From NCBI GenBank assembly GCA_047651235.1, contig CP178758.1, positions 3,660,001 through 3,692,000 of the forward strand: a DNA stretch of 32,000 nucleotides, given 5' to 3'. Below are positions 6,963 to 29,858 of this stretch, in pieces. The position numbers and the translations under genes are program-made. Origin of the DNA: Candidatus Electrothrix yaqonensis (GTDB lineage: Bacteria; Desulfobacterota; Desulfobulbia; Desulfobulbales; Desulfobulbaceae). Under the pieces are notes generated by a model that was not told where the DNA came from, did no database searches, and saw only the letters and a list, made by a program, of their open reading frames with translations. Position 1 is the first letter of the stretch, and each line of letters opens with the position of its first letter.

Positions 6963-9900
6963 TTACGCTTCTTTCTCTCCCGCCAGTACCACATACATCT
7001 CCATCCTCTTCCGTTCAAATCTTTCCCTTCCCGCCGCAAACATCTCCTTGCTCCGCTCTATCAGGAAATAGAGCACCGGCACGACCACCAGGGTCAGGAA
7101 GGTGGCGACCAAGAGGCCGAAGATGACCACCACGGCCATGGACTGCCACCACTGACTGGACTCGCTGACCCAGGAGATGCGCAGGTTGCGGAAGTCGTAG
7201 GAGACCCCGGTGACCATAGGGATCAGGCCCAGCACCGTGGTCACGGCGGTAAGCAGAACAGGGCGCAGGCGGGTGGCACCGGCAGAAACCACCGCCTCCA
7301 GCAGGGCAAAGCCGCTTTCCCGCAGCTTATTGGTGTAATCGATCAGGACAATGGCGTTGTTCACCACCACTCCGGCCAGGGAAATCACCCCGATACCGGT
7401 CATGATAATACCGAAGGGCTGGCGGTAGAGCATCAGGCCGAGGAAGGCTCCGCCCATGGACAGGATCACTGAACTCATGATGATAAAGGGCTGGCTCACC
7501 GAGTTGAACTGGGTCACCAAGATCAGGAAGATGAGAAACAGGGCAATGACAAAGGCTTGGCTGAGGAATTCCTGGGATTCCTGCTGGTCTTGTTTTCCCC
7601 CGGTAAAACGGACCGTGTAGCCCGGGGGCAGGGGCATGTCGGCCAGCAGCTTCTCAGCCTGCTCCCGGACCACCGGCCCGGGAACCTTGGTCTCATCCAC
7701 ATTGGCCGTGACCGTGACCGTGCGCTGATTATTGATCCGGTTGATATTGCCCAGAGAACCGGTAAAATCCACTGTCGCCAGGGTGGACAGGGGAACGATA
7801 ACCCCGCTGGGTGTGGGGATCATGAATTCGCGTAGTACATCATCGACCCGGCGGTCCTCTTCCGGCAGCTGCACCGTGATGTCGTAATCCTCATTCCCTT
7901 CCCGGAACGAGGAGATTGCCAGCCCGTTATAGGATGTTTTGATGGCAGAGCCTATTGCGCTGGTGCTCAGGCCGAATAGGGCTGCCTTCTGCCGGTCGAT
8001 TCTGATTCTGACCGACGGCGTCCCTTCCACGAAGTTATCGCGAATATCCTCGACATGAGGTGTCTTTTCCAGAACAGCTCTGATCTCCTTGGCAATCGAG
8101 CCGAGCACAGTAAAATTATCGCCGCTGATCTCAATATTGATTGCCGCGCCCGTGGGCGGGCCTTGCGCCTCCATAGCCACGGTGATCTTGGCCCCGGCAA
8201 TATCCCTGAGTCGCTTCCGGATATCCTCCACTGTCTCGTAGGTGGAACGGGAGCGGTCTTCCAGATCAAGAAAGCGGATGCCCACATGGTTCGGGGTGTT
8301 GGGATCAAAGGCTGAACCGCCCCCGGTGGAGCTGACCGCCTTGCTGTAGATGGTCTTCACGTTGTCCAGATCACTGGGGCCGGTGGATGATTCTGCAGAA
8401 TGATCGGTGAGGGCGAAAGATTTTTCGTCCTTACTCTTATTGGCAAATGATTCGCCCCTACGCTCGCCTGCCACAGCCTCCTCGATCTGGCGAAGAATGC
8501 CGTCAATATAGTTCAGATCTGCGCCTTCCGGCATATCTGTGTTCACGTAAATTCCCTTGGGATCAATATCCGGAAAAAATTCCTTAGGCTTTTCAATACC
8601 CACCACCAGGAGCCAGCCCTGAACCATGAAGACCAGCAAGAAAACAGCAGCAGCAACTAAGGCAAGGGGATGGGCCAGGCAGAACTTGAGCAGCCCGGCA
8701 TAGGAGCGCAGCAGAGGTCCTTGGATGGTTACCGGCTGCTCTCCGGCCGCTTCCACCTCGGCAGAGGAGACCGACCGCACCTGCTTGGCGCTCTTCATGA
8801 ACAGGGAGGCCAGGGCCGGATTGATCACCAAGGCCACAAACAGACTGGAGGACAGGGTGATGATCAGAGTCTGGGGCAGATAGCCCATAAACTCACCCAT
8901 AATGCCGGGCCAGAAGAGCATGGGCGAAAACACAGCCAGGGTGGTCAGGGTGGACCCGATGACCGGCATAGCCACCTCTGAGGTTGCCTTCATGGCTGCC
9001 TCTGCTCTGGGCACACCCTGTTCCATAAAGCGATAGATATTCTCAATGATCACAATGGCGTTATCCACCAACATGCCCAGGGCCAGGGTCAGACTGAACA
9101 GGACCACCATATTCAGGGTGATGCCCAAAAGCTGGAGCATGGTAAAGGAAAGGAGCATGGAAAAGGGGATGGCCATGCTCACCAGCAGGGCATTACGGAT
9201 TCCCATGGCAAAGAAGATCACGACCACCACCAGAACCAGGCCAGAGAGGATGTTATTTTCCAGATCTGCCACATTGGCTTTTGTTTCCTTGGCCTTGTCC
9301 AGCACCTTGGTAATGGTGGTTCCACTGGGCCAGCTCGGCCGCTTTTTGTGCAGGATGTCTTCAACCGCATCGGCAATGGCGATAATGTTCTCGCCGGAAC
9401 GTTTCTTGACCGCGATATTCACTGCAGGCAGGCTGTTAAGCCGGGACCGGCTGGTCTCCTCTTTAAAGGTGTCCAGCACCCTTGCCACATCCCGTGCATA
9501 GACTGGCTGCCCGTCGTGTGTCCCAATGACTAGGCCGTACAGCTCCTCTGGAGTGGTGAACTCGCCGGGCACCCGGACCTGAAATTTGCCGTCGCCCATA
9601 TGCAGAGCCCCGCCCGAGGTGTTGCTGTTTTCACCCTGAACAGCAGCCTGCACCGCAGGGATGCTCAGACCGAAATAGGCCAGCTTTTCCGGAAAGAATT
9701 CAATCCGGATCTCCCGTTCCCGCGCCCCGGTGATCTCTACGTCCAGCACGCCCGATACGCCCTCGATTTCGTCCTCCAGATCATCAGCGATTTCTTTAAG
9801 ACAGCGTTCGCCGCAGGTTCCGGCCAGAGAGAAGATCAGGATCGGTATTTCAGAAATATTGACCTCAAAGACATAGGGATCATCTTCCAGATCATTGGGC

Positions 9901-10617: not shown

Positions 10618-11366
10618 TCAATATAAATTATAAATTATTTGGTCTTTATGAACATCTGCCATGAACTTTTCATCGTTATTATCAAGTTTCCGAAGAAATT
10701 GAGAATTCTTCCCGTAAAAACCATCACAACCCACCCAGTTACAACGAACGCCATTCTTTCGCGCATGGAAAACCATGTCAAGAGCCTGCTCATGCTTTGT
10801 TTGGAAAACAATTTTATCGGCGGGAATCTTGGCCTTAAGACAACGTTCCTTGTCATCCGTCCAGCTTTTCGGTAAATACAGCCGACAGTCGATCGGCGTT
10901 GAAAAGCGACCATATCCCAAAGTTGCAAACACTACTACTTGACAGTTGTCGGTTTTACCAAGCTGCCCGCACCATTGACGAGAAACCCCAACAGACATTT
11001 TACCCTTTTTGGGTATCCCGGATTCATCAATAAAAAGAGCGCTATCTTCCTTTCCTCCAAAAATGTTATCCGCATCTTTAGCTACGTGGTTGTTTACAGG
11101 ACGCCAATCCCAGTTCGATTCGGAAAGAAAATACTGGAGGGGCTCATATTTAACGCCCGGAACCTTTTCCTCCATACGTTCCATGTTTTTTTGTCAGACT
11201 GGAATAAACCTTTCAAGTATTGGAATGCTTTATCTGACAAACTTACTGTATGTCTCTTAAAAAAGAGATGATATCTTTCGTGAAAAGACGTAAGTTGCCG
11301 GGCGATGCCGGTCAACTCAAAGAATTTGTCATGGGGACTTCTTTTTTCGGGGCTGGGAGCGTTCAT
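10618..11366 (-). pseudogene. IS701-family transposase, frameshifted and 3'-truncated. The IS remnant extends to about 11545, where composition switches to GC-rich
   Basis: Two ORFs (11094-11366 and 10618-11184) join into one IS701-type sequence: ...YLKGLFQSDKK/NMERMEEKV...WDW...FIDESG.PKKG..SVGVSRQWCG.LGK.DNCQV.V...LYLP..W. The frame break is at the T7/A7 run at 11186-11192. The protein stops at roughly 60% of the usual family length. Confidence 0.75.
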
Positions 11367-11545: not shown

Positions 11546-13652
11546 GGTGTCAGCATCAGGACCTCCCTTGCCAGTCGGCCCTGTCGCACCATCGGGGGGG
11601 CCATAAGGCCAGTTTCAGTCCCAAGGCGTGAAATGGGTGACCGCTACCCGCCAGAAGGTCGCTCCCGGAGCATACCGGCTTGCATCTCCCAAACCGGTCA
11701 CTTCATCGGCAAAGGAACCGTCATTGTTCAGATCATCCGGCGCATCGTCTCCGGTCGAATCCAAGGCATCAACAACACCATCGCTGTCCGTATCCAGCAG
11801 CTTAACCACGACACCGTTTTCAGACGGTACCCAAACCCCGCGATCCCGGTCGTAATACCCGACGGGCACGGCCTCACCAACATCGAATCCAAGGAAGTTG
11901 TCCACCCAGACTATAACCGGTTTCTCAAAGCGCACCCGTGCCGCCCCGTCCACCGAAAGTTCAGAACAATAGGTATAGGCAGAATTGGGCGGCAGTGCCG
12001 CAGGCATGGATTCTTGGGTTTTGAACTCCGTGGCCCTGGTAGTGATATTTGATAATTCCTGAATATCGTTGCCCTGCTCATCAAGCAAATACGCCTTGTT
12101 ATCGCCCTGGAAAACCATCGTCGCGGACCGGTTGCCGAACTCGTCGCTGATCTCTGTGCTTGTATGGGTCACCACTGTGTCAGGGTTGCCGTCAAAGCTG
12201 ATCGTAGTGGCGACTGGATCTTCAGTCAGTAGCTGCACAGTTTCAGCAACCGCAATATCATTCCAGGGCACAGAAACCTGACGGTGCGAGGTGATAAAAC
12301 CATCATGCGTATAGGCAAGGGTCATGGTACCGCCGCCCTCAACAGGAATGGTGAACCTGCCCTCGGTATCAGTGAGCACGGTGCCGTATTCAGGATGGCC
12401 ATGCACCGTGATCCGCACATCCGCCAGCGGCGATCCGGCCAGATTCTTTACCAGGCCGGTAATCAGGGCAAATCGTTTTTCATCGTATGCATCGACGGTC
12501 GCATCCTCAGGGACAAGGTCGTCATACTGCTCCCCATACGAGCCTTCCGGCTGCGGTTCCGGGCTGCCCGTCACCTGCACCGTCACCTGTGCGCTGACCG
12601 TGCCTTTCGTGCCTGAACCGGTAATGGTGTAGGTGGTGGTATGTTCGGGAGTTACGCTCAGAGAATCATTTGCCGCGACTGCACCGATTCCGTTGTCGAT
12701 GCTGACAGTATCAACGTTGCTGCTCTGCCAGGACAGCTCGGTGGAGGCACCGAGGGCAATGCTTTCCGGGTCTGCGGAGATTGTAATTGTGGGGCCAGCG
12801 GGTAATACTTCTACCGTGGCGGTATCCGAGGCGGTGCCGCCGGGACCGATGGCGGTAATTGTGTAAGTGGTCGCGGCAGTCGGCTGCACGGAAAACGAGC
12901 CGTTGAGATCAACCGCGCCGATGCCGTTATCAATGCTCACGGAATCAGCATTTGTGCTGGTCCAGGAAAGCTGCGAACTGCCGCCCGCTATGATGGAGGC
13001 CGGATCGGCGGACAGAGAAACCGTAGGCGGCTGAAAGACGGTGAGCGTGACGCTTTCGGTGACCGTGACGCCCGCACCGGTGGCAGTGATTGTGTAGGTG
13101 GTCGTCGCGGTCGGTGCTACGGAAACGGAGCCGTTGAGGTCAACCGGACCGATGCCGTTATCGATGCTGACAGTGTCGGCATTGTCTGACGACCAAGACA
13201 ATTCAGCGCTCTGACCCGATGCTATGGACTGAGGAGTTACCGTCAGTGCCGCAGCGGGCAGGTCTGCATCAACGGTCAGCCATTTCTTCAGGTAACTCCA
13301 GGGCTTCCTGTTGATCTTGATGTTTAAGCTGCTTTCCAGCAGATCGACCAGGAATTCCAGTGAAAAAACGTTCCGGTTGAAATCTTTGGGGGTGAATATT
13401 TCAGCCCCAAGGATCTGTACCCGGGCACTGCTGATCCGGCCTTTTCTGACTCCATCGCTGTTGCGCACATGGACGCACATGGAGACGCCCCTGTTTGGGG
13501 ATTGCTCGAAAAGAATCGTTGAAAACGTTGGGCTTCCCCGACGTACGGGTATATTTGACAGGCCCAAGGACTGTGACTTCAACGGCTTCAGAGGTGCTTA
13601 CTGAAAGCAATGCGAAAAGCGTAAACAGGAGGAAGTAGGTTGTTTTTCTCAT
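11546..13652 (-). pseudogene. Secreted Ig-like-repeat / CarboxypepD_reg / Rhs-teneurin-like N-terminal region protein, inactivated by frameshift, in-frame TGA and IS truncation
   Basis: A signal-peptide ORF (13401-13652, MRKTTYFLLFTLFALLSVSTSEA) runs in a different frame into the 655-aa ORF 11615-13582. After the TGA at 11615-11617 the same frame stays open (NWPYGPPDGATGPTGKGGPDAD) as far as the AT-rich IS701 sequence. No YD/RHS shell or toxin tip follows. Confidence 0.7.
12563..13261 (-). repeat. Three tandem ~78-aa Ig-like domain repeats (coding) within the pseudogene
   Basis: The pattern ...SA(D/T)P.SI..G.S..LSW.S.N(A/V)D(S/T)VSIDNGIG.V...(G/D)S.SV.P...TTYTIT..G..G... occurs three times in succession. 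Confidence 0.8.
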
Positions 13653-13865: not shown

Positions 13866-15695
13866 ATGAAAAACAAATCCATATCCTTCTGCGGCCAGAA
13901 CCTCGTCATCAGATATCTGCCCCAAGCTGCCACGGCTGTTGACATTGCCTTTGCCGGTTTTTCGGCAGGCAACCCGCTTGATCCGGTTGCAACGTTTGAT
14001 GTTCTGTTCGATCAGGAGACAGATTCTTTTTCTGTCACAACCGAGGGCGAAGAAATCGGCGCCGAACTGGATCTTGCTGATCTTACTCTGCTCCTCTCGG
14101 CCCGTGCAGCATATGAATTTGCCTGTACCATAACCGACGGACTGGTGATCTATGGAGCTGCTGTGCAGGCCAGCGGCGGGAGTATACTTATTCCCGGCAG
14201 GACAGAAAACAGCAGGCTCATTGCCTGGCTTGTTCAGCAGGGATACAAATATCTGACGAGCGAACTGATCTGTCTGGCGCAGAACGATCAGCTGTTCGCT
14301 TCTCTACCCTGCCCGCTTTTTATCAGACAGGAGGAGCGGCCTGTACTCGAACCGATTATCATGGAGTTCATAGCCCCGAAAAACAGCAGTCGAATACTGC
14401 GCAGCAGGACAGGCATGGTGCTCTCCTCCGGCATTCTTTCTGATGATTTTTCCGGCGAACCCGCTGCAGGGCAGCAGAAACTGGCCTTTCTTCTCTTTGC
14501 AGAGTATCAGCAAAATAGCCGCTTCTCCCTTGAGTCTGTCAGTCCGGCTCAGGCAACCGGACGGCTCATGGGATGTCTGGCAAATCATCATAAATTAGGG
14601 ACAAAAAACGTTACCCGGCTTGCCGCCCTGACCCGGCAGATTCCGGCTCTGTCTCTCCGATATGCGGACCTCGGACAGCTGGAAAACATTCTGCCGCCGA
14701 TTCTTGATTTTATCCTTGCAGCCGAAGGCACCCGGCCGAACCTGCAGCGGGCTGCGCTTAAAGCATTTTCCCGCCTGACAGCAGCAGAGCATCCGCCGCA
14801 GAAACAATTATTTCTTCTACAGCAGGCTACTCCGCCGGGGAAAAAAAGAAAAATTACCATCGGCATGGCCACCTATGATGACTTTGACGGGGTATATTTT
14901 TCTGTTCAAGCCCTGCGGATGTACCATCCTGAAATTATCGATCAATGCGAAATCCTGGTTATTGACAACCATCCGGACGGCCCCTGTGCGGAGAGTCTGA
15001 AAAAACTGGATACGTCCATTGACGGCTACCGCTATGTACCCCTGCCGGATGTGCAGGGGACAGCCGCCGGACGGAACGCCCTTTTTCAACATGCCGGGGG
15101 AGATTATGTCCTCTGTATGGACTGCCACGTTTTTCTTGTTCCGGGCGCAGTACACAAACTGGCAGAGTATTTTTCAGCCCACCCGGACAGTCCTGACCTG
15201 CTCCAGGGCCCTATGATTCACGACAATCTGAAAAGTATTTCCACCCATTTTAAACCGGTCTGGCGGGGCGGCATGTACGGCGTCTGGGGACATGACCCGC
15301 GCGGTGATGATCCTGCCGGAGAACCGTTTGATATTCCCATGCAGGGCGTCGGTCTTTTTGCCTGTCGCCGCAAGGCCTGGCCCGGATTTAATCCGAGTTT
15401 TTACGGATTCGGGGCGGACGAAGGATACATTCACGAAAAATTCCGCCAAGCTGGCGGCCGAACCCTCTGCCTGCCGTTTCTCCGCTGGCTGCACCGTTTT
15501 GACCGCCCTATGGGAGCACCCTATCCTGTCCACTGGAAAGACCGTATCCATAATTATCTGCTCGGATTCACCGAGCTCGGTTTGGATACCGCCCCGGTCA
15601 AGGACCATTTCACTAAGCTGTTGGGTGCGGAAAAAGTAGCAGCTCTCTTTAAAGAAATTGAGAAAGAAATAGCCGGTTCCCCCTCCTGCCCATGA
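13866..15695 (+). CDS. Fusion protein: N-terminal HprK-related-kinase-like domain with a degenerate P-loop, plus a C-terminal family-2 (GT-A) glycosyltransferase
   Basis: Residues ~1-300 are paralogous to the kinase at 21051-21959. Compare ISFCGQNLVIRY / IVGFCGQYVRIS, and AAVQASGGSILIPGRTENSRLIAWLVQQGYKYLTSEL / AAAVLCGKKGVLIPGNTGAGKSTFAAWLTACGCGYLTDEL. The GxGKS Walker-A is replaced by ENSR. Residues ~330-560 carry GT2 features: ITIGMATYDD, LVIDNHPDG, YVLCMDCH. Confidence 0.7.
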   Translation: MKNKSISFCGQNLVIRYLPQAATAVDIAFAGFSAGNPLDPVATFDVLFDQETDSFSVTTEGEEIGAELDLADLTLLLSARAAYEFACTITDGLVIYGAAVQASGGSILIPGRTENSRLIAWLVQQGYKYLTSELICLAQNDQLFASLPCPLFIRQEERPVLEPIIMEFIAPKNSSRILRSRTGMVLSSGILSDDFSGEPAAGQQKLAFLLFAEYQQNSRFSLESVSPAQATGRLMGCLANHHKLGTKNVTRLAALTRQIPALSLRYADLGQLENILPPILDFILAAEGTRPNLQRAALKAFSRLTAAEHPPQKQLFLLQQATPPGKKRKITIGMATYDDFDGVYFSVQALRMYHPEIIDQCEILVIDNHPDGPCAESLKKLDTSIDGYRYVPLPDVQGTAAGRNALFQHAGGDYVLCMDCHVFLVPGAVHKLAEYFSAHPDSPDLLQGPMIHDNLKSISTHFKPVWRGGMYGVWGHDPRGDDPAGEPFDIPMQGVGLFACRRKAWPGFNPSFYGFGADEGYIHEKFRQAGGRTLCLPFLRWLHRFDRPMGAPYPVHWKDRIHNYLLGFTELGLDTAPVKDHFTKLLGAEKVAALFKEIEKEIAGSPSCP

Positions 15696-15760: not shown

Positions 15761-16864
15761 TTATGTGCAGAGATTGAACAGATAGCCGGTAAAGAGAATC
15801 CCTGACCCGACCACGGCAATAAACACAGCGATCAGCTTGGGTTTGAGCACCTTGCGCAGAATCACCATTTCCGGAAGAGAGAGAGCGATAACGCTCATCA
15901 TAAAGGCCAGCACCGTGCCGAGGGCTGCGCCCTTGCCCAGCAGGGCCTCCATAACCGGAATAATCCCGGCAGCATTGGAGTACATGGGAATGCCGAGTAC
16001 GACCGCAGCAGGAACAGACCACCACTGCTCCCTCCCCATAACTGAGGCCATAAAGTCTTCCGGCACGTATCCGTGAATGGCCGCTCCGGCCGCTATTCCG
16101 GCAACCACATAGAGCCAGACTTTGCCTACGATCTCCCGGACTGCTGTCCGGCCTTGTTCCACCCGGTCGGCCCAAGTCAGTTTTTTCTCGATCACCAGCT
16201 GCTGGACATTGCGCATCTCTTGGACCCAGTCCTCAATCCAATGCTCAAGCTGCAGCCGCCCGATGACCCACCCGGCAACCACAGCAATAGTCAGACCGGA
16301 CACGAGGTAGAGCGAGGCGGTTTTCCAGCCTAACAGGCCGTACAGCAAGATCAATGCTACTTCATTGACCATGGGAGCGGCAATGAGAAACGAAAAGGTC
16401 ACACCCAGCGGTATTCCTGCCTGCACAAAGCCGAGAAAAAGCGGCACCGCCGAGCAGGAGCAGAACGGGGTGACAATCCCCAGCAGCGCGGCCAGCACAT
16501 GCCCGGCAGCCTGTCCCCGACCGGCAAGGTATTTCCGCGTCCGCTCGCGGGTAAAGAACGAACGGATCATGCCGATAAGAAAGACGACCAGGGTCAGGAG
16601 GAGCAGGACCTTGGGGGTATCATAGACAAAGAACTGCACAGCCTTGCCGAGGTGACTGCCCTCTGTAAGTCCGAGTATTCTGTAGGCAAAAAAACGGGAA
16701 AAGGGCAGCAGCTGCGAATAGAGAAGAAACCACAGGGCGAGCCCTCCTCCTGCCGCAACAATTTGGCGTATTCTGTCGGGGTACCCCTGCGTTCTGTCTT
16801 GTCCGTTTTCCTGTTTTTTTTCCTGTGCGGTACAGCCGCAGCCGATCGGTTGAAGAGGTTCCAT
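15761..16864 (-). CDS. Permease of the DUF318/ArsP-like family (YraQ-type), ArsR-associated
   Basis: 367 aa and polytopic. It has the family-typical TPFCSCSAVP motif and an N-terminal CGC. It lies 14 nt downstream of arsR on the same strand. Confidence 0.75.
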   Translation of the reverse strand: MEPLQPIGCGCTAQEKKQENGQDRTQGYPDRIRQIVAAGGGLALWFLLYSQLLPFSRFFAYRILGLTEGSHLGKAVQFFVYDTPKVLLLLTLVVFLIGMIRSFFTRERTRKYLAGRGQAAGHVLAALLGIVTPFCSCSAVPLFLGFVQAGIPLGVTFSFLIAAPMVNEVALILLYGLLGWKTASLYLVSGLTIAVVAGWVIGRLQLEHWIEDWVQEMRNVQQLVIEKKLTWADRVEQGRTAVREIVGKVWLYVVAGIAAGAAIHGYVPEDFMASVMGREQWWSVPAAVVLGIPMYSNAAGIIPVMEALLGKGAALGTVLAFMMSVIALSLPEMVILRKVLKPKLIAVFIAVVGSGILFTGYLFNLCT

Positions 16865-17363: not shown

Positions 17364-17437
17364 GGAAAAGTAAAGGAAGTAAAGGAAGTAAAGGAAGTAA
17401 AGGAAGTAAAGGAAGTAAAGGAAGTAAAGGATAAAGG
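17364..17437. repeat. Tandem 9-bp repeat GGAAGTAAA: 6 perfect copies (17375-17428) plus a degenerate copy at each end
   Basis: Read directly: GGAAAAGTAAA (GGAAGTAAA)x6 GGATAAAGG. It is intergenic, between the arsR -35 and the -35 of the 17563 gene. Confidence 0.95.
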
Positions 17438-17482: not shown

Positions 17483-17511
17483 TTGACAATTCTGCATAAA
17501 AAAGGTATTTT
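17483..17511 (+). promoter_or_regulatory. Candidate sigma70 promoter for the 17563 gene (TTGACA-N17-TATTTT)
   Basis: TTGACA at 17483-17488, a 17-nt spacer, TATTTT at 17506-17511. A GGGAGG SD at 17552-17557 sits 5 nt before the ATG. Confidence 0.45.
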
Positions 17512-17562: not shown

Positions 17563-18561
17563 ATGACAGAAAAAAAATTGGAAGCCGCAAATGCACCTGA
17601 CAGCCAAAGCCGTCGGAAAACTATGAAAAAGCTGGCTGTAGGGGTCGGCGCACTGGCCGGATACAGTTCATTGCCTGAAAAATGGGTATCGCCGATCATT
17701 GAAGGCATTGTCCTTCCTGCCCACGCCCAGACATCGGCAGCGCTCTCTGTCACGAATCCGACAATGGAGCTGATCGGCGGGAGTTCCCGTACAGGTGACA
17801 TGACCCTTCGCGTAACCGGAAGTGTCTCTCCCCCCAGATCGGGGGCGGATCTGAGCTTAACCATTGAAGGGCTTACAGAAGCGACAGGATTCCATCGGCA
17901 GGAGGAGAACCGGGGAGCCTCGGGTTTTCTCGCATCTGTGGCGGATAGCCTTGTTCCGTCGGCTGAAGCCGGGTCACACAAGAAACACAAGGTAAAGGTA
18001 AAGACCGATGCCAAAGGAGCCTTTTCGGTCATCATTGTACTCCACTTCGGTCCGGGGATCGTCCTGTTGAGGTGTGCATGTAAGATTTTCGGCGTGTTTA
18101 TCGGTTATATAGGTTCTCTGGAAGTGCCGGACTGCGACCCCTGTACTACGAAAAAAGGCACCACGGACAAACCGAAGGAAACCACCACGACTGAGGCGCC
18201 AGCAGAAGAAGCGGAAGTGGAGGTGGACAACGCGGCACCATCAGCATGCGAGCTTGTCGTAACTGACACTGACGGGAAAACAGTGACCTTATCGGTCGGA
18301 AAAGACGGCGGGTCCGGGTTGGAAGCTCGGGGAAGCGTAAATAGTCTGCTGAAGAAGCTCAGATTGGAGGCTCTGGATCAGGATGCACTGGGTACGACAA
18401 CCTTTACAGTCACCTGCACATTGACCTATGAAGACCAGACAACAAACGAAGAGGTCGGCGAACTTTCTGCTTCAGATACGATATTTTCATATACCCATCA
18501 GACACCAGATGTTGTCATTGAACTGATAGTAATTTCCATTACTGAGGATTTGCCGATTTGA
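17563..18561 (+). CDS. Secreted protein of unknown family with a Tat-like signal (SRRKTMKKLAVGVGALAG ... LPAHA/QTS), two beta-rich domains and a Thr/Glu-rich linker
   Basis: 332-aa ORF with a strong SD and its own promoter and terminator. It has a twin-Arg n-region, a hydrophobic h-region and an AxA cleavage site. Motifs include KVKTDAKGAFSV (Ig/CarboxypepD_reg-like strand), a CAC...C.PC cysteine cluster and the TTKKGTTDKPKETTTTEAPAEEAE linker. Confidence 0.6.
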   Translation: MTEKKLEAANAPDSQSRRKTMKKLAVGVGALAGYSSLPEKWVSPIIEGIVLPAHAQTSAALSVTNPTMELIGGSSRTGDMTLRVTGSVSPPRSGADLSLTIEGLTEATGFHRQEENRGASGFLASVADSLVPSAEAGSHKKHKVKVKTDAKGAFSVIIVLHFGPGIVLLRCACKIFGVFIGYIGSLEVPDCDPCTTKKGTTDKPKETTTTEAPAEEAEVEVDNAAPSACELVVTDTDGKTVTLSVGKDGGSGLEARGSVNSLLKKLRLEALDQDALGTTTFTVTCTLTYEDQTTNEEVGELSASDTIFSYTHQTPDVVIELIVISITEDLPI

Positions 18562-18642: not shown

Positions 18643-18677
18643 AAGGCCGTGGTGTTCTGCTGCGGCCTTTTTTTATT
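18643..18677 (+). terminator. Rho-independent terminator for the 17563-18561 gene, sitting between convergent genes
   Basis: AAGGCCG (18643-18649) pairs with CGGCCTT (18663-18669), with extra G-U/G-C pairs inside. The hairpin is followed by TTTTTTTATT. Confidence 0.6.
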
Positions 18678-18776: not shown

Positions 18777-20585
18777 CTACCGAATCTTCCTGTACAGCGC
18801 TGCAGCAAGCGTCTTCCAGTTTCTGAGCAAGGTGAGCCGTGACTGCCGCTTTTTCAGTTCCTGACTGACCTCCAGCGGCAGATTTGCCTGCAGAAAAATA
18901 TCCCAGTAAAGTTTGATCCACCAGAAAATGTGTTTGGGATGTTCAGCCAGCAGGGCCCGCAGACGCCCCAACCGTCCTGTCGGGGCGTAATAAATCCGTA
19001 GCCACCAGTCCGGCGGCAGGAAAGTATCCCGCAGGATCGGGAGCATGCCTCTGCCTTTCTGCTCGCCCAGTTTTCGTCTCGGCCAGCCTGTGAACGATGC
19101 CCCGACTTTTTTTGGTTCTGGTTCGTTCCGCAATGATAACCGCCTGCACACGGTCTCGCTCCAGGGCGTTAAATAATGCAGGTGCGGCAGTGCTCGGAGT
19201 AGGTGGGGATATACCGATTTAATCCGGTCCCAGTCGATGGTCTCCAGCCTGCTTTCGATAAGGCTGACGATATCGGCAGCGGAGATTAGTTTATACGGAT
19301 CATAGGTGAGCGGTGCATGGAATCCATGCTGATACAGATGCCACAGCATTTCCTCATCTGCCAGAGTGTATGCTGTTACTCCGTCTGCATCAAAGGATGC
19401 TGCATTGCGGTACAGCATATCAAAGTCAACCTTTTCGGAATACGGCGGGCAGTCCGGGTAGAGATTACGGTGCAGCTCAAGACAGATCCGGATTCCATCC
19501 ATTTCCTGATAGAGCTCTGCCAAGTGCAAGTGGTCTGCTGCTGTCGGAGTACCCGGATCGAGAAAACCGTGCTTTTGCAGCAGGGCATGGGCAGGCAGGG
19601 CGTCCTTCCAAGGAAGCAGCAGATCGATATCCCGCATAGGACGCAGGCCCGGTTCCGGATACTGGGTATGACAGAGGGCTGCGCCTTTCAGGACAAGAAC
19701 CGGAAAGCCTTCACTTTCCAGCAGAGCCAATATTCTGCCCAACGCCTTGGTCAGCAGCAGATTGGTCTGCCGGTGCCTGAGACAGAGTAGTCTGAGCCTG
19801 CGGAGAAAATTGTCTGGCAGGGCAATCCCGGCAGCTGTGCAATGTCGGTGCAGCAACGGGGCCATGCCGTGCGCCTCGGCCTGCTCAAGCAGATCATCCC
19901 AGCCGCTGAAACCGGCACATGCTTTGACAAGAAGTTCCTGCTGCAGCTGATGCGGTTCGATTCTGGCGCAGAGGCTGAGAATTTGCCGTGTGATCCCAAT
20001 CCCATGCATGTTATCTGCATCCGGTTCTGCAGCCTGCTGTGCAGCGGAACAACTCACCGTCTTTTCCTGAGAATGGAGTGCTGTTCTCATAAAGTTGGGA
20101 ATATAGCGCCAATCCCCTATTTCCGGATGCACACAGACATAGGCAGGGACATCTGCGAGGCTTCCGTACTGACGATACTGGGCAAGTGCCCGATGATTGC
20201 CGTCAATAATGACCCAAGGACCGTCGGGCTGAGCGCAGATCAGTGTAAGGGCAAGCTGCGGAGATGAGCGCAGATCAACCGGCTGTTTCCCGCTCTGTTC
20301 ACTATGCGTTATAAAGGATTCAATCCTTTTTCTTGTCGAATCATCGGCCTTCTTCTGGTCAAAATCTCTTAGTCTGCCAGTATAGCCTTCAGTCCACGGA
20401 ACAAAATCGCAGTCAAGCAGATAGACGCTATCTGTGTCTTCCGGCTCCAGCATGGCTTTATATAGCTTGAATGCATCTGTCGGGGCATGACGGTCCATCT
20501 CATGACTGCCGAGCACCACGCTGGTTTCGCAGTTCTGTTCATGCTTCCGGAGTTCCTCCAGAGAAAGCGGATGAAGAATCTTCAA
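18777..20585 (-). CDS. Fusion protein: N-terminal ParB/Srx-fold-like domain (DGNHR motif) plus an uncharacterised nucleotidyltransferase (NTP_transf_5/PF14907-like)
   Basis: 602 aa with an apparent TTG start preceded by AGGGTAGGG. The N-terminal ~180 aa contain PDGPWVIIDGNHRALAQYRQYG...VPAYV (ParB/sulfiredoxin pattern G..HR..A). The rest matches the family as I remember it: GFPVLVLKGAAL....YPEPGLRPMRDIDLLLP...A...L...GF. Confidence 0.65.
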   Translation of the reverse strand: MKILHPLSLEELRKHEQNCETSVVLGSHEMDRHAPTDAFKLYKAMLEPEDTDSVYLLDCDFVPWTEGYTGRLRDFDQKKADDSTRKRIESFITHSEQSGKQPVDLRSSPQLALTLICAQPDGPWVIIDGNHRALAQYRQYGSLADVPAYVCVHPEIGDWRYIPNFMRTALHSQEKTVSCSAAQQAAEPDADNMHGIGITRQILSLCARIEPHQLQQELLVKACAGFSGWDDLLEQAEAHGMAPLLHRHCTAAGIALPDNFLRRLRLLCLRHRQTNLLLTKALGRILALLESEGFPVLVLKGAALCHTQYPEPGLRPMRDIDLLLPWKDALPAHALLQKHGFLDPGTPTAADHLHLAELYQEMDGIRICLELHRNLYPDCPPYSEKVDFDMLYRNAASFDADGVTAYTLADEEMLWHLYQHGFHAPLTYDPYKLISAADIVSLIESRLETIDWDRIKSVYPHLLRALPHLHYLTPWSETVCRRLSLRNEPEPKKVGASFTGWPRRKLGEQKGRGMLPILRDTFLPPDWWLRIYYAPTGRLGRLRALLAEHPKHIFWWIKLYWDIFLQANLPLEVSQELKKRQSRLTLLRNWKTLAAALYRKIR

Positions 20586-20630: not shown

Positions 20631-20948
20631 TCAGCTGTGTTCGATAGCCGACCCCTCGGTATCGTCGTCGGCATTATCAGCGTACCGCAGGACTCCCTGG
20701 GCAAGCAGTGCGTCAAGCGCAGCAGCAATATCAGCGCTGACAGCAGATTTCTGCGCAGGAAAGGCTTCTTCCAGCAGGGCGGTCATTTCTTCCTGCGAAT
20801 GGCCTTTGTCCGCCATTGCGCAGACCAGCCGGGCTGTTTCGTTAAGGTAGACGCCTTTGCCGGTGGAAACAGCATAGAGCAGCGTTTCGCCGTCAAACTC
20901 TTCTGCTTTGAAATCAGGATTCAGAGAAAATTTTCTTGTCGGTTCCAT
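20631..20948 (-). CDS. PqqD-family protein (RiPP recognition element-type peptide chaperone)
   Basis: 105 aa. F.GETLLY...GK.VYLNETA..V....DKGHS.EEM...L.E.F......V..DI...LD.L...GVL is the PqqD/RRE pattern, followed by an acidic tail. Confidence 0.75.
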   Translation of the reverse strand: MEPTRKFSLNPDFKAEEFDGETLLYAVSTGKGVYLNETARLVCAMADKGHSQEEMTALLEEAFPAQKSAVSADIAAALDALLAQGVLRYADNADDDTEGSAIEHS

Positions 20949-21050: not shown

Positions 21051-21959
21051 TCAGGAAAAAGTATCCCGGAAAAATTCAGGCAAAGCGTCTGCAAGCAGGG
21101 GCCGCAGCCCGGCAAAGCTCCCGTAGGTCAGCTGCAGGATCGGAACATCTCTGCTCAGCCGGGCTAAGCCGCTGATGCCGTGCCCGGGAATATTTCGCGC
21201 ATTTACATAGCATTCCATAAGCCGCGAGCAGCCTCTGCCCGGTGTTAGTTTGGTCAATTCGGTCCGGGCACCGGCCCGGAACCGGGGAAATAGGATTAAT
21301 GCCGGTCGGGGAGTCGCCGGAGTAAATGCAGGATTGAGCAGGCGATGCGGCACCATGAACCCGCTATCGCCTGTCAGTATTTTGGCGCTGTCATTGTTAA
21401 ACCGGACATACGGAGCAAGGGCCGCTGCAGCCTCCGGGCGGAGGGTGACCGGTCGGGTGAACGGCTGGATGCGGTACTCATCTCCTGAAAGGATGACCAG
21501 TTCATCGGTCAGATAGCCGCAACCGCAGGCTGTCAGCCAAGCAGCAAAGGTACTTTTCCCGGCGCCGGTGTTGCCTGGAATGAGCACGCCTTTTTTCCCG
21601 CAAAGAACCGCTGCCGCATGAACTGCCGGCCCACTGTCGTTGTTTTCCAGGCATTGAAAAATAATTTCATTGAGCAGGGCATAGGCCAGCTCCCGGCGGC
21701 ACTCCCCCTGATAGAGCAGCTCGCCTTCCCGGTGCAGGGACATCGACTCTTTCCCGGAAAAGACAAGCCTGCATTCGGCATGGGGTTTCGCATGCTGAAC
21801 GTACTGAGCGTGCTGATTGTCCTGCAGATCTGCACATAAAAAATCGACAAGGGCTGCCGCTGCCGGGCTGTTGCAGCTGATACGGACGTATTGGCCGCAG
21901 AAACCGACAATTTTATCGACACGCTCACCGGCACGACAACAGAGCGAAGTGTTATACAT
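21051..21959 (-). CDS. HprK-related kinase (HPr kinase/phosphorylase C-terminal-domain-like, intact P-loop)
   Basis: 302 aa. HAAAVLCGKKGVLIPGNTGAGKSTFAAWLTACGCGYLTDELV parallels the HprK block G.SG.GKSE.A..L...G..L..DD. An 8-nt overlap with the upstream parA-like gene is present. Confidence 0.75.
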   Translation of the reverse strand: MYNTSLCCRAGERVDKIVGFCGQYVRISCNSPAAAALVDFLCADLQDNQHAQYVQHAKPHAECRLVFSGKESMSLHREGELLYQGECRRELAYALLNEIIFQCLENNDSGPAVHAAAVLCGKKGVLIPGNTGAGKSTFAAWLTACGCGYLTDELVILSGDEYRIQPFTRPVTLRPEAAAALAPYVRFNNDSAKILTGDSGFMVPHRLLNPAFTPATPRPALILFPRFRAGARTELTKLTPGRGCSRLMECYVNARNIPGHGISGLARLSRDVPILQLTYGSFAGLRPLLADALPEFFRDTFS

Positions 21960-22986
21960 TTTTCATCATTTCATGCAGTTCTTCGGCCATCTGTTCAAAA
22001 ACTTTTCTGAAATTATCTCGGCTTTTTTTCATGGTTTCTAAAACAAATCCACCTTGTTCAAGTTGATCGTCGCCGAGTGCGAAAATAGGTACGTTAAACT
22101 TTTGAGATTGCGCAATCAGCGAATTGAAATCTGAAACATTTGCTAAATTATATGGCTCGTCATTTGCTGAATATCTCTTAAATTCTTCAGCAGTTATTGC
22201 CATCTTAATTGGTTCGAGTGCTGGAATGAGCTTACCTGAAACAGTCTTTTTAATTATGTCAATCCAGCGCTGAAAAGATTTGGCGGGAGCGCCACTTCTG
22301 GGCCTATATCTTTGTGAAATAAATCCTATGAATTTAGGTGGGATATTGGGGAGTCTATAATCTACGGTATTGCTTCTGAAAGAAGCCACATCCGTATTCC
22401 ACTTAGGGACAACACTTGAAAGTGACTTGATTGCCTGCGCACAGAAGAAATCAGGAGACGTTGGAACAATAAAATAATCGCTGGACATTAGAAGGCACTC
22501 ATTAAGTGCACCAACACTGGGACTCATATCGATTATGATATATTCAAACTCATGTTTTTCTCCCGTTATACGAAGAAGTTCACCAATACTTCCCGGTAGA
22601 TTTCTGATCGCAGGTATAGCTGTACTGGCTGTCAATGCAACGCTTACTTGCGTCTCAATCTCTGAAAGCGCCAAGTTGCCGCAATAAATAAACAGGTTGC
22701 CATTTCCTGTCGGAGCAGGGTTTCCCGGCTGAAGACCGGTCAAGCTCCCGGACATAACCGGTTGAAGCCCTGCGGAAAGGTCGCAACCAGGGTTGGTAGC
22801 ATAAAAATCCTCAATATCTTCTATAGAATTATAATCGAGGACCAAGGCAGTCAAATTACATTGTGGGTCGGCGTCAACAATCAGTGTTTTATGTCCCTGC
22901 TCCGCAAGAACCCAGCCGAGATTAAAGGCTGTGGTTGTCTTGCTTACTCCACCTTTGTGATTAAACAGTGAAATTAGTTTCATCAA
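21952..22986 (-). CDS. ParA/MinD-superfamily ATPase (deviant Walker A) with a long C-terminal extension; markedly AT-rich
   Basis: 344 aa. The N-terminus reads KLISLFNHKGGVSKTTTAFNLGWVLAEQGHKTLIVDADPQCNLT. The SD AAGGATGGAG lies 12 nt after the trpD stop. Hand counts of two 60-nt lines give ~33-37% GC, against ~70% in a trpD line. Confidence 0.85.
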   Translation of the reverse strand: MMKLISLFNHKGGVSKTTTAFNLGWVLAEQGHKTLIVDADPQCNLTALVLDYNSIEDIEDFYATNPGCDLSAGLQPVMSGSLTGLQPGNPAPTGNGNLFIYCGNLALSEIETQVSVALTASTAIPAIRNLPGSIGELLRITGEKHEFEYIIIDMSPSVGALNECLLMSSDYFIVPTSPDFFCAQAIKSLSSVVPKWNTDVASFRSNTVDYRLPNIPPKFIGFISQRYRPRSGAPAKSFQRWIDIIKKTVSGKLIPALEPIKMAITAEEFKRYSANDEPYNLANVSDFNSLIAQSQKFNVPIFALGDDQLEQGGFVLETMKKSRDNFRKVFEQMAEELHEMMKNV

Positions 22987-28172: not shown

Positions 28173-29858
28173 CTATAATTTTATAACACTCGGCAGCACT
28201 ACTGCCCGATTGAATTTCATCACCCCCTGCGTCTGCTCCGGCAGCAGGGCGACAGGCCCGTTCTCAGTGCAGTTCTTTCCGGTCATTCCGATCAGGTCGA
28301 GGAACTGCATGGCCTCCTGAGAAAGTTCGACAAAGGTAGACTGCTTGAGGAACTCGACACGGGTCTGATAGGTGAACAGGCCCTTCAGGTTCTGGGGAAG
28401 CTGATTGCGCAGGCGGTTCCGCAGCTCGGCCTGCGATACTTCGGTGAGATAATCCGGCAGGGTGCGGTGGCCGCAGCGCAGCCAGTCATAGCGCAGCAGG
28501 TCCAGGAGCAGGGCACTGTCCCTGCGGTTCCTGACCAGTTCCGTCAGAATCCGGTTCATGAGCTGATGGGTGCGGGCAACCCGGAAAAAGTCATACTCCC
28601 GGCAAAGGGTAAGTAGTTCGACAAAGAACGCGTAAGGTTCCTCGTTGCGGCGAATGAGATACTGCCAGAGGGAGCGGAAGAACCGGTTGTTGTGGAACGA
28701 CTCGGTGCATTCACACAGCTCGTACAGCTCACGCAGTTGCCCGTGCGCCAGCCAGCGGGTGGCCAGCACCGCATAAGGCGGTTCCTGGCAGAAGATCAGG
28801 CCGAACTCCTCTGTCTGCCGGGCGATCTCTGTACCGGGCAGCACCTTGAGCAGTCCTAACTGGAGGTAATGGGGCGCAAGCCTGAACACCCGGTTGAACG
28901 AATCCCGGAAGCTTGCTTCGGTTTCAAAGGGCAGGCCGAGGATGAGGTCCACATGCAGATGAATATTGTCCGGGGCGAGCAGGCGGCGGATATTGCGGCA
29001 GGAGGCGTCGAGATTCATCCTGCGGTTGACTGCTGCTAGGGTCGGTTCGTGACAACTCTGTATCCCGATCTCGAACTGGAACTGGTTGCGGGGAACTGTG
29101 GCGAGCAGCTCGAACATGGGTTCGGTAAAGCGGTCCGGGGCAATCTCGAAATGAAAACGTACATTCCCCGCTTGCTCGATGAGAAATTGCCAGATCTCCA
29201 GAGCACGCTCAGGATGCGCATTAAAGGTACGGTCCACCAGCTTGATGATCATGGGCCGGGCCGCGATCAGCTCGGTCAGTTCCTCTTTGACCAGGGCAAG
29301 GGGCTTGCGCCGCACCCCTTTGGACCCGGAAGAGAGACAGTAGGAGCAGGAGAACGGACAGCCGCGGGAGGATTCATAATAGAGCTGCCGATTTTTCAGG
29401 GCCCCGCTGAAGTCCTCCTGCCGGTAGGGAGAAGGAAACGAGGCGCTCGGTTCGGCCCTGTACAGCGGCTGCAGACGGCCTTTTCCGAGGTCGCGGTAAA
29501 ACGCATCAGGCGCACCTTCGATTTCCCCGATAAAGAGGGTGCATTGATCCGGCAGTTTCCCCAGGGCCGGAGCCTGCGGTCCGCCGATAACGATGGGCAG
29601 ATTGGGCTGCAGGCGGGCGAGATCGGTGATCAGACGTCGGATATACCGGTGGTTCCAGATATACACGGAAAAAAAGACCGCCCCGGCCGGTTGACCGCTG
29701 ATGCGCAGCAGGGTGGCATAATACGGATCATTGATGGTGCACTGGCTGAGAACGATGTCTGCTTCAGGCAGATGCTGTTCCAAGGCATTGCGGACCGAGA
29801 ACAGGGCCGGGCAGGAATGGGAAAAACGGCAGTTCAGCGCAACAAGATGCAGCATCAT
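28173..29858 (-). CDS. B12-binding-domain radical SAM protein with a DUF4080-type C-terminal domain
   Basis: 561 aa. An N-terminal Rossmann-like B12-binding region (LHLVALNCRFSHSCPAL...SVYIWN) is followed by the radical SAM motif SSRGCPFSCSYC and a long helical C-terminal domain. Confidence 0.8.
   Translation of the reverse strand: MMLHLVALNCRFSHSCPALFSVRNALEQHLPEADIVLSQCTINDPYYATLLRISGQPAGAVFFSVYIWNHRYIRRLITDLARLQPNLPIVIGGPQAPALGKLPDQCTLFIGEIEGAPDAFYRDLGKGRLQPLYRAEPSASFPSPYRQEDFSGALKNRQLYYESSRGCPFSCSYCLSSGSKGVRRKPLALVKEELTELIAARPMIIKLVDRTFNAHPERALEIWQFLIEQAGNVRFHFEIAPDRFTEPMFELLATVPRNQFQFEIGIQSCHEPTLAAVNRRMNLDASCRNIRRLLAPDNIHLHVDLILGLPFETEASFRDSFNRVFRLAPHYLQLGLLKVLPGTEIARQTEEFGLIFCQEPPYAVLATRWLAHGQLRELYELCECTESFHNNRFFRSLWQYLIRRNEEPYAFFVELLTLCREYDFFRVARTHQLMNRILTELVRNRRDSALLLDLLRYDWLRCGHRTLPDYLTEVSQAELRNRLRNQLPQNLKGLFTYQTRVEFLKQSTFVELSQEAMQFLDLIGMTGKNCTENGPVALLPEQTQGVMKFNRAVVLPSVIKL

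Follow-up and report, generated by a model that had tools for sequence, protein, structure and literature searches.

The question raised by this locus is what a kinase-like domain without an intact ATP-binding motif is doing at the front of a glycosyltransferase (GT). The stretch analyzed, referred to here as the window, comprises 32,000 nt of the genome of Candidatus Electrothrix yaqonensis (contig CP178758.1, positions 3,660,001 to 3,692,000 of the forward strand), and includes an intact open reading frame (ORF) for a 609 aa protein in which an HprK-like domain is followed by a GT-A domain. The initial annotation saw in this gene a pseudokinase paralogous to a stand-alone HprK-like kinase encoded nearby (21051-21959), and proposed that it could dock the GT on the substrate that the true kinase phosphorylates. 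Our preferred answer, which we regard as reasonably probable, is that the fusion protein is kinase-dead and belongs to a cassette resembling those of RiPPs (peptides made by the ribosome and then modified), with a PqqD protein, an NTP_transf_5 protein and leader-bearing precursors, and that its dead domain docks an active GT on the substrate.

Loss of the kinase active site

The fusion gene, its two domains and the diagnostic sites within them are located as follows.

13866..15695 (+): fusion gene, intact ORF, 609 aa; HprK-like pseudokinase followed by a GT2/GT-A glycosyltransferase
13866..14765 (+): catalytically degenerate domain with the HprK/PEPCK fold at the N-terminus, residues 1-300 (BLASTP, domain model, Foldseek)
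14151..14153 (+): codon for Tyr96 at the conserved His of the family (LHAGAV motif), which is His in 100% of 87 motif-intact homologues
14196..14216 (+): degenerate Walker A, G111-R-T-E-N-S-R117; consensus GxxGxGK[ST]; two residues shorter, with Asn115 for Lys
14259..14264 (+): Ser132-Glu133 at the Asp-Glu of the family (YLTDE); Asp in 100% of intact members
14841..15692 (+): GT-A domain, residues 326-609, with a polypeptide-GalNAc-transferase-like fold (PF00535, conserved columns, fold matches)
15120..15128 (+): D419-C420-H421, DxH metal/nucleotide-sugar motif; D419, H421 and H543 are invariant in 101 sequences

The resemblance of the N-terminal ~300 aa to the stand-alone kinase, first noticed by eye, was confirmed along its length. 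BLASTP aligns residues 3-276 of the fusion protein with residues 15-289 of the kinase at 28% identity (E 2e-22), far above chance, and the alignment covers both the N-terminal strands (SISFCGQNLVIRY vs IVGFCGQYVRIS) and the core segment that had been quoted in support. The NCBIfam model TIGR04352 (HprK_rel_A) matches residues 83-274 of the fusion (E 2.5e-9, 36.7 bits) and, more strongly, the stand-alone kinase (E 2.6e-19, 69.4 bits); both scores are far below the curated cutoff of 200 bits, and the two proteins are relatives of this equivalog, not members of it. The Pfam family PF07475 (Hpr_kinase_C) gave no match to the 609 aa protein at E<=0.01, and some of its homologues match weakly (23-25 bits, against a cutoff of 33.3). 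The AlphaFold2 model of the whole protein has a mean predicted local distance difference test score (pLDDT) of 92.8, and the N-domain modeled alone has a pLDDT of 92.8 and a predicted TM-score (pTM) of 0.90. Foldseek comparison of this domain with the PDB (E<=0.001) returned only ATP-dependent PEPCK (E 4.7e-5, TMq ~0.55) and HprK/P (1kkm, E 1.5e-4, TMt 0.45), and a profile of the fusion family matches HprK/P 1ko7 by sequence (E 2.2e-5). In a rough neighbor-joining (NJ) tree, the stand-alone kinases group in a single clade, and their fused counterparts from these loci in a second, long-branched one, so the two are old paralogues, each with its own clade across the Desulfobulbales loci.

The catalytic region has the family consensus LHAgAV...GxxGxGK[ST]SL.aWL...G..YL(S/T)DE. 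In the alignment, GNTGAGKST of the kinase faces GRTE--NSR in the fusion, and the reported shortening of the Walker A motif by two residues, with loss of its Lys, therefore stands; G114 and K115, both 100% conserved among intact members, are missing from the 609 aa protein. The damage is more extensive than first listed, and includes His96 to Tyr, Asp132 to Ser, Arg149 to Cys and NARN to NHHK, all of them at motifs that the stand-alone kinase keeps. A comparison of 87 motif-intact with 12 motif-dead homologues showed that the dead proteins have also lost Arg149 (99% to 8%), Pro212, Ala241-Arg242-Asn243 ('NARN', 93-98% to 8-33%) and Gly267, and the substitutions at Arg149 and NARN place the 609 aa protein within this pattern. 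With three motifs lost, and with them two more sites conserved in the family, the domain to judge from its sequence no longer has a kinase active site. Since the fold is kept, the label pseudokinase is justified. The 2-residue Walker A deletion also occurs in Electrothrix sp. AR4 (GRSGNSK--), which retains the His, and this shared deletion, together with lesions that vary among relatives, suggests that the decay was stepwise.

One alternative is that the N-domain remains an active kinase or phosphotransferase with a non-canonical nucleotide pocket, so that the protein would be bifunctional. Arg112 and Arg117 lie within the shortened loop, Glu133 is retained and the fold is intact; set against this, five family-invariant elements are lost (His96, G114/K115 with the 2-residue deletion, Asp132, Arg149 and NARN) and an intact paralogue is encoded in the same region, and we consider continued kinase activity highly improbable.

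The opposite possibility is that the domain is a relic without function, under neutral decay since a separate kinase assumed its task, with the GT finding its substrate alone or via PqqD. Such a history would explain the variety of Walker A lesions (GRTENSR, GHLGGEHS, GGA---EQE, GDYSPERS and GKPGSGRH), the long branches of the fused domains in the NJ tree, and the retention by the 609 aa protein of only 16 of the 30 non-catalytic conserved N-domain columns. However, a full-length N-domain is kept in every motif-dead lineage, with a high-confidence fold (pLDDT 92.8), and a specific subset of residues (Trp121, Phe211, Leu234, Asn240, Arg257, Pro260, Ala261, Gln271 and Leu272) is kept at >=92% in the motif-dead homologues while active-site residues fall to 8-33%, which points to selective loss and not to uniform decay. 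Nor, at the 81 loci described below, has any GT of this subfamily simply lost the N-domain with nothing in its place: one protein (locus L072) has a PqqD domain in its place and another (L078) has TPR and other domains. A relic is therefore unlikely, and the retained domain is more readily understood as the docking module of our preferred reading.

The description of the fusion as an unusual architecture did not survive a wider search. Among 5.8 billion proteins (E<=0.001) there are at least 865 homologues of the fusion, the best 120 of which are full-length and 38-57% identical, and in a scan of one genome per species at least 427 species genomes encode a relative. Carriers within the Desulfobulbales include Electronema, Desulfocapsa, Desulfofustis glycolicus and Desulforhopalus singaporensis, and others are found in the Hyphomicrobiales (Bradyrhizobium, Labrys, Oricola, Ahrensia) and the Arenicellales. 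Longer family members also have GT25, LicD or sulfotransferase domains. The sequence [GA]xxxxGK[ST] is intact in about 90% of the 120 closest homologues, and the fusion, as far as its motifs predict, is normally a bifunctional kinase-GT in which the dead state is a lineage-specific decay. Public annotation records these homologues only as 'glycosyltransferase family 2' or 'hypothetical', and neither the fusion family nor its associated precursors were found described in literature searches (HprK + PqqD + glycosyltransferase; twin-arginine + Thr-rich RiPP; cable-bacteria glycosyltransferases).

The glycosyltransferase and its conserved partners

The C-terminal half had been assigned to the GT-A/GT2 enzymes with a DCH metal site, and this assignment is well borne out. 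Pfam GT2 (PF00535) matches residues 333-442 with 50.9 bits (gathering cutoff 23.3), and approximately 50 residues of this half are invariant in an alignment of 101 sequences, including D338-D339, D367-N368, D419-x-H421, E519, H523 and H543-R544. Of 150 GT columns that are at least 80% conserved in the family, 143 are kept in the 609 aa fusion. The 50 best PDB fold matches of the domain are all polypeptide GalNAc-transferases (ppGalNAc-Ts) from human, fly and Toxoplasma, with E-values from 2.6e-12, a probability of 1.0, ~260-316 aligned columns and 14-18% identity, and H543 would be the residue-level equivalent of their distal His. The ppGalNAc-Ts are enzymes with a DxH motif that initiate mucin-type O-glycosylation on peptides rich in Thr/Ser. 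Pfam detected no lectin domain in the fusion, and the protein ends in helices at residue 609. Residue conservation and predicted fold together indicate that the GT domain is probably active and peptide-directed.

Peptide-directed activity is also suggested by the company that the gene keeps. Sequences within 10 kb on either side of the fusion gene were surveyed at 81 non-redundant loci; 54 of these have PqqD and 51 have NTP_transf_5, for the most part right beside the fusion gene, and precursors occur in 46-48. Many alpha- and gammaproteobacterial loci have an operon in the order NTP_transf_5, PqqD, fusion, in which the fusion occupies the place of the kinase. Two domain swaps, both checked with Pfam, were found: at L072 a PqqD domain, instead of a kinase domain, lies ahead of the same GT subfamily, and at L050 NTP_transf_5 is fused to PqqD. 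These swaps suggest that the GT is a peptide enzyme linked to a recognition protein.

The corresponding genes of the window form a single strand-run.

18777..20585 (-): NTP_transf_5 protein (PsmN/LppN family), PF14907 E 8.3e-42, residues 228-457
20631..20948 (-): PqqD-family RiPP recognition element (RRE), 105 aa, PF05402, 34.6 bits against a cutoff of 23.4
21051..21959 (-): stand-alone HprK-like kinase, 302 aa; His114, GNTGAGKST (129-137), YLTDE and NARN intact
21952-22986 (-): gene for a ParA-like ATPase; 8 nt overlap with the kinase start

By sequence, the PDB entry closest to the PqqD protein is the lasso-peptide RRE TfuB1 (6jx3, E 9.5e-4), over nearly its full length. The NTP_transf_5 protein carries a unique N-terminal extension of ~200 aa with the sequence IIDGNHRALA, which appears ParB/Srx-like by eye and has no Pfam match. 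Neither this extension nor the ParA-like gene has a counterpart in the 83 other loci, and they are not counted as conserved parts of the system. A Pfam scan of the window ORFs revealed no signal peptidase, SpI-like peptidase, lasso cyclase/macrolactam synthetase, B2 protease, or ABC or MsbA-like exporter.

It is common for Desulfobulbales loci to encode the fusion on one strand and, on the other, a stand-alone kinase beside PqqD and NTP_transf_5. Among loci with the system context, at least one kinase motif is lost from the fusion in 6 of the 8 that have a stand-alone kinase and in 7 of the 52 that do not (odds ratio 19, Fisher p 7.6e-4), a comparison that is uncorrected for phylogeny and covers only the surrounding ±10 kb.

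The GT might instead be an ordinary GT2 enzyme of cell-envelope polysaccharide or lipopolysaccharide synthesis, its linkage to the cassette and to the candidate substrate described below being coincidental. Its homologues are annotated only as GT2 proteins, there is a weak sequence match to the teichoic-acid GT TarP (E 5e-3), the longer members carry GT25, LicD or sulfotransferase domains, and 15 loci are without peptide context. On the other hand, the linkage to precursors, PqqD and NTP_transf_5 recurs in alphaproteobacterial, gammaproteobacterial and Desulfobulbales lineages, a PqqD-GT fusion exists, and by fold the domain is closest to the ppGalNAc-Ts, which modify peptides, and not to polysaccharide synthases; no segment that would span the membrane was noted, although no dedicated tool was used to search for one. 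A role in polysaccharide synthesis is thus improbable, and a GT acting on peptides is retained in what follows.

The 15 loci that lack context include those of Labrys spp. (L074-L076, L079) as well as L044, L058, L065, L068, L082 and others. All 15 have lost at least one kinase motif (e.g., His to Arg in Labrys), and they may represent a sub-family with another role.

Candidate substrates and a proposed pathway

A search beside the kinase cassette of the window for a short precursor (a [YW]xxP box in an ORF of 20-140 aa) gave nothing convincing. The candidate substrate is an unannotated protein of 332 aa (U332), which is encoded 1.9 kb downstream of the fusion gene, between it and the cassette, and unexpectedly has homologues in ~50 loci; it was recognized as a candidate only because of these homologues.

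17483-17511: promoter-like site of U332, intergenic, ahead of the ORF
17563..18561 (+): candidate substrate U332, 332 aa; 46 of the 81 fusion loci have homologues that share its leader
17734..17736 (+): codon for Ser58, third residue after AHA, predicted phospho-acceptor (of 81 leaders, 61 have Ser here and 17 have Thr)
18643-18669: terminator of U332, 3' of the ORF

The leader of U332 is twin-arginine-like (R17-R18) and contains W41-V-S-P44-I-I46, an RRE box of the form [Y/W]xxPx[LVIFA], the sequence P52-A-H-A55 and Ser58; it is followed by a folded domain and then by a Thr-rich stretch, TTKKGTTDKPKETTTTEAP. With the strict pattern RR...W..P.{7}PA[HQ]A, 79 of 8,985 ORFs were found, in 46 loci, and of 78 precursor ORFs, 69 lie within 3 kb of the fusion gene and 58 are upstream of it on the same strand, often in 2-4 tandem copies. 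The presence of precursors correlates with that of PqqD (Fisher p 1e-4). The leader, which is twin-arginine-like and has the consensus LPxKWxKPVVxxVxxPAHAxxS at its end, is highly conserved across phyla: the Trp, the Pro residues at +3 and +11, the Ala at +14, the upstream RR and an AxA sequence are present in all 81 leaders examined, Ala-His-Ala is found in 76, and the third residue after it is Ser or Thr in 78. What follows the leader is less uniform. Median values for the cores are 59 aa in length and 29% in Thr, where the background is 4.4%, and many cores consist of Thr runs. No Pfam or NCBIfam family covers these precursors, and a database search with the 52 aa consensus leader returned three proteins only, all 'hypothetical'; gene callers mostly miss them.

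Two further observations concern U332. The motif at the end of the leader, (D/E)x(L/V/I)(V/I)PxA(H/E)A, is repeated inside the protein at residues ~126-141 (17938-17985, VADSLVPSAEAGSHKK). Such an internal copy is found in 11 of 28 long-core substrates (Electrothrix, Arenicellales; e.g., L084 and L020/L063), ~40x background, and may mark another point of processing or modification. An intergenic, perfect 9 bp tandem repeat (17368-17431, AAGTAAAGG, 7.1 copies) lies immediately ahead of the promoter-like site.

What the analysis shows is homology, missing kinase motifs, a conserved GT, matching folds and linked genes; from these we infer the following series of biochemical steps. PqqD would bind the WxxPxV box in the leader of U332 (17563-18561), and the stand-alone kinase would then phosphorylate Ser58, the third residue after AHA. 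The dead kinase domain may still recognize the leader or its complex with PqqD, holding the active GT on the substrate, and the GT would either O-glycosylate the Thr/Ser-rich stretch or extend a glycan begun on the phosphate. The modified protein would be exported, probably by the twin-arginine translocation (Tat) system, and cut after AHA. Docking is the best current reading of the fusion and fits the shared PqqD, the candidate substrate and the domain swap at L072, with the dead domain presumably delivering the GT to the substrate of the kinase.

Several results weigh against this reading. The enrichment test for motif loss ignores phylogenetic relatedness, and at the 15 loci mentioned above the fusion has neither PqqD nor NTP_transf_5 nor a precursor within 10 kb. 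U332 contains only 12.6% Thr and is a folded protein of 277 aa, not a short poly-Thr peptide. Matches of the leaders to the Tat-signal model TIGR01409 (cutoff 16.7 bits) are at or just below its cutoff, with one precursor scoring 17.5 and others 16.6, 16.0, 12.9 and 12.2, and U332 has no listed match. The fusion gene of the window is monocistronic and 5 kb from the kinase cassette, with the opposite-strand genes arsP and arsR lying before the substrate gene, and co-regulation is not evident. Electronema sp. PJ has a dead fusion and a precursor with neither PqqD nor kinase within 10 kb. The linkage of the system to tatA, described next, is seen in one genome only and is a weak hint.

Close relatives show other arrangements of the same genes. 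The nearest DNA relatives are already divergent, at ~55-64% protein identity. In Ca. Electrothrix aestuarii, three U332 paralogues flank tatA and the PqqD/kinase/NTP_transf_5 cassette; this linkage of tatA is absent from the other 83 loci and from the window. At that locus (CP159373.1, L084), tatA/E lies at 9315-9527 (+) between U332-type paralogues and beside the cassette, and a 63 aa PqqD-like fragment is found at 9600-9791. In Electrothrix sp. AR4 the U332 homologue is 110 nt downstream of the fusion gene, which suggests that the ars genes have split an ancestral pair in the window, where they have the appearance of an insertion between the fusion gene and the putative substrate gene.

15761-16864 (-): arsP, ArsP-type permease, PF03773
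16879-17223 (-): arsR, ArsR-like regulator

On the other side of the fusion gene, an 83 aa ORF with a signal peptide (13401-13652, -) lies directly upstream of, and in another frame from, a 655 aa ORF (11615-13582, -) with Ig-like repeats and a teneurin TTR-like domain, and the two look like a single surface-protein gene broken by a frameshift; a DDE_5 transposase fragment (10618-11184) adjoins the larger ORF. A B12-binding radical SAM protein with DUF4080 is encoded ~12 kb from the fusion gene (28173-29858, -), and another is present 2.6 kb from the fusion in an Arenicellales locus (L003, 14445-15911, -), which may be coincidence.

A wider scheme can be put forward tentatively, as a possibility that we hold with less confidence than docking itself. 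It would be a widespread proteobacterial pathway to bacterial 'mucins' in which a twin-arginine signal peptide also serves as the RiPP leader; PqqD reads the WxxPxV box within that signal peptide and retains the precursor in the cytoplasm, the kinase phosphorylates the Ser at the third position past the later signal-peptidase site and the ppGalNAc-T-like GT O-glycosylates a poly-Thr core, after which Tat and the housekeeping signal peptidase take the place of a dedicated exporter and protease. Cable bacteria would then represent a variant in which the fused pseudokinase acts as adaptor and the cargo is a family of periplasmic proteins that are folded.

If the docking reading is correct, the fusion would be a clear case of a bacterial pseudokinase retained as a targeting module for another enzyme, and the natural occurrence of intact and dead versions allows a direct comparison. 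Unannotated poly-Thr peptides and proteins with a signal-peptide-like leader, present in at least 46 of 81 loci, would be a new class of substrate, and in cable bacteria they would form a small group of periplasmic proteins that are probably modified. Mucin-type-like O-glycosylation in Proteobacteria is now testable in the cultured Oricola indica, Desulfofustis glycolicus, Desulforhopalus singaporensis and Bradyrhizobium.

Comparison with known systems

Individual parts of the fusion have well-known counterparts. HprK/P (1ko7, 1kkm, 1jb1) shares its fold and the order of motifs (His, Walker A, Asp-Asp) with the fusion family, whereas the 609 aa protein is without all three motifs and is joined to a GT, its predicted substrate is a leader-bearing peptide and not HPr, and its N-domain has an extra N-terminal beta subdomain that is closer to PEPCK (TMq ~0.55). 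The ppGalNAc-Ts (GT27) of animals and Toxoplasma have in common with the GT domain the GT-A fold, the DxH motif, the downstream invariant His, and Thr/Pro-rich, mucin-like substrates, in this case the genetically linked ones. Unlike them, the present enzyme is bacterial and cytoplasmic, has only 14-18% identity and no ricin-type lectin domain, and where ppGalNAc-T uses its lectin domain for targeting, the window system would use the leader, the RRE or the dead kinase domain. The glycocin GTs (SunS, ThuS and relatives) are likewise GT2 enzymes that glycosylate ribosomal peptides before export, in systems with double-glycine leaders and ABC export; they are not known to have a kinase domain or a PqqD partner.

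As a system, the arrangement has its closest known relatives in the tailoring systems of linear polyphosphorylated peptides (LPP) and of paeninodin. In the tailoring of the lasso peptides paeninodin and pseudomycoidin (PadeK/PsmK and PsmN, PMC6993621), an HprK-family kinase phosphorylates a peptide Ser and an NTP_transf_5 protein serves in adding hexose to the phosphate, PsmN being required for hexose addition to the phosphoserine of pseudomycoidin. The window PqqD is itself most like a lasso B1 protein, TfuB1. Differences from lasso tailoring are that the window has no macrolactam synthetase or B2 protease, and that the acceptor Ser, which is C-terminal in lasso peptides, is predicted to be near the N-terminus of the core.

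The LPP clusters of Bacillota (LppA/K/B/N/S/D) are similar to the window system in combining an HprK-like kinase with a PqqD-type RRE, present as a discrete protein, and with an NTP_transf_5 protein, and in having no lasso cyclase. LppK, the HprK-like kinase, adds several phosphates to Ser3 of the core, and a signal-peptidase-I-like enzyme cleaves off the leader just ahead of the core sequence AQS, so that the phosphosite is two residues after the cleavage site (PMC13381572). The LPP leader motif is YxxPxVLxHQxIxFETxxS, and the [Y/W]xxPxV box within it is the binding site of both lasso and LPP recognition proteins (PMC13381572). This box recurs in the leaders described here, as does a Ser three residues after a signal-peptidase-type site, and the spacing between box and Ser is nearly the same, at 18 residues from Y to S in LPP and 17 from W to S in the window system (WxKPVVxSVxxPAHA/xxS). 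In contrast to LPP, the leader itself resembles a twin-arginine signal peptide, with AHA at its end, the core is either Thr-rich or an entire folded protein, no SpI-like peptidase or MsbA-like exporter is found by Pfam among the window ORFs, and the hosts are Pseudomonadota and Desulfobulbales, not Bacillota.

The difference of most consequence is the ppGalNAc-T-like GT fused to the kinase domain, by which a recognizable GT is linked to the HprK-kinase/PqqD/NTP_transf_5 module; neither the partner for glycosylation nor the part played by the NTP-transferase was settled in the LPP and pseudomycoidin work (PMC13381572, PMC6993621). The authors of the LPP study did not obtain activation of LppN and suspected that a partner was missing (PMC13381572), and the proteobacterial GT fused to a kinase suggests what this partner may be. 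The system around the fusion, consisting of an LPP-like module in Proteobacteria, a fused ppGalNAc-T-like GT and a new class of candidate Thr-rich substrates with signal-peptide-like leaders, is a result of greater importance than the fusion itself.

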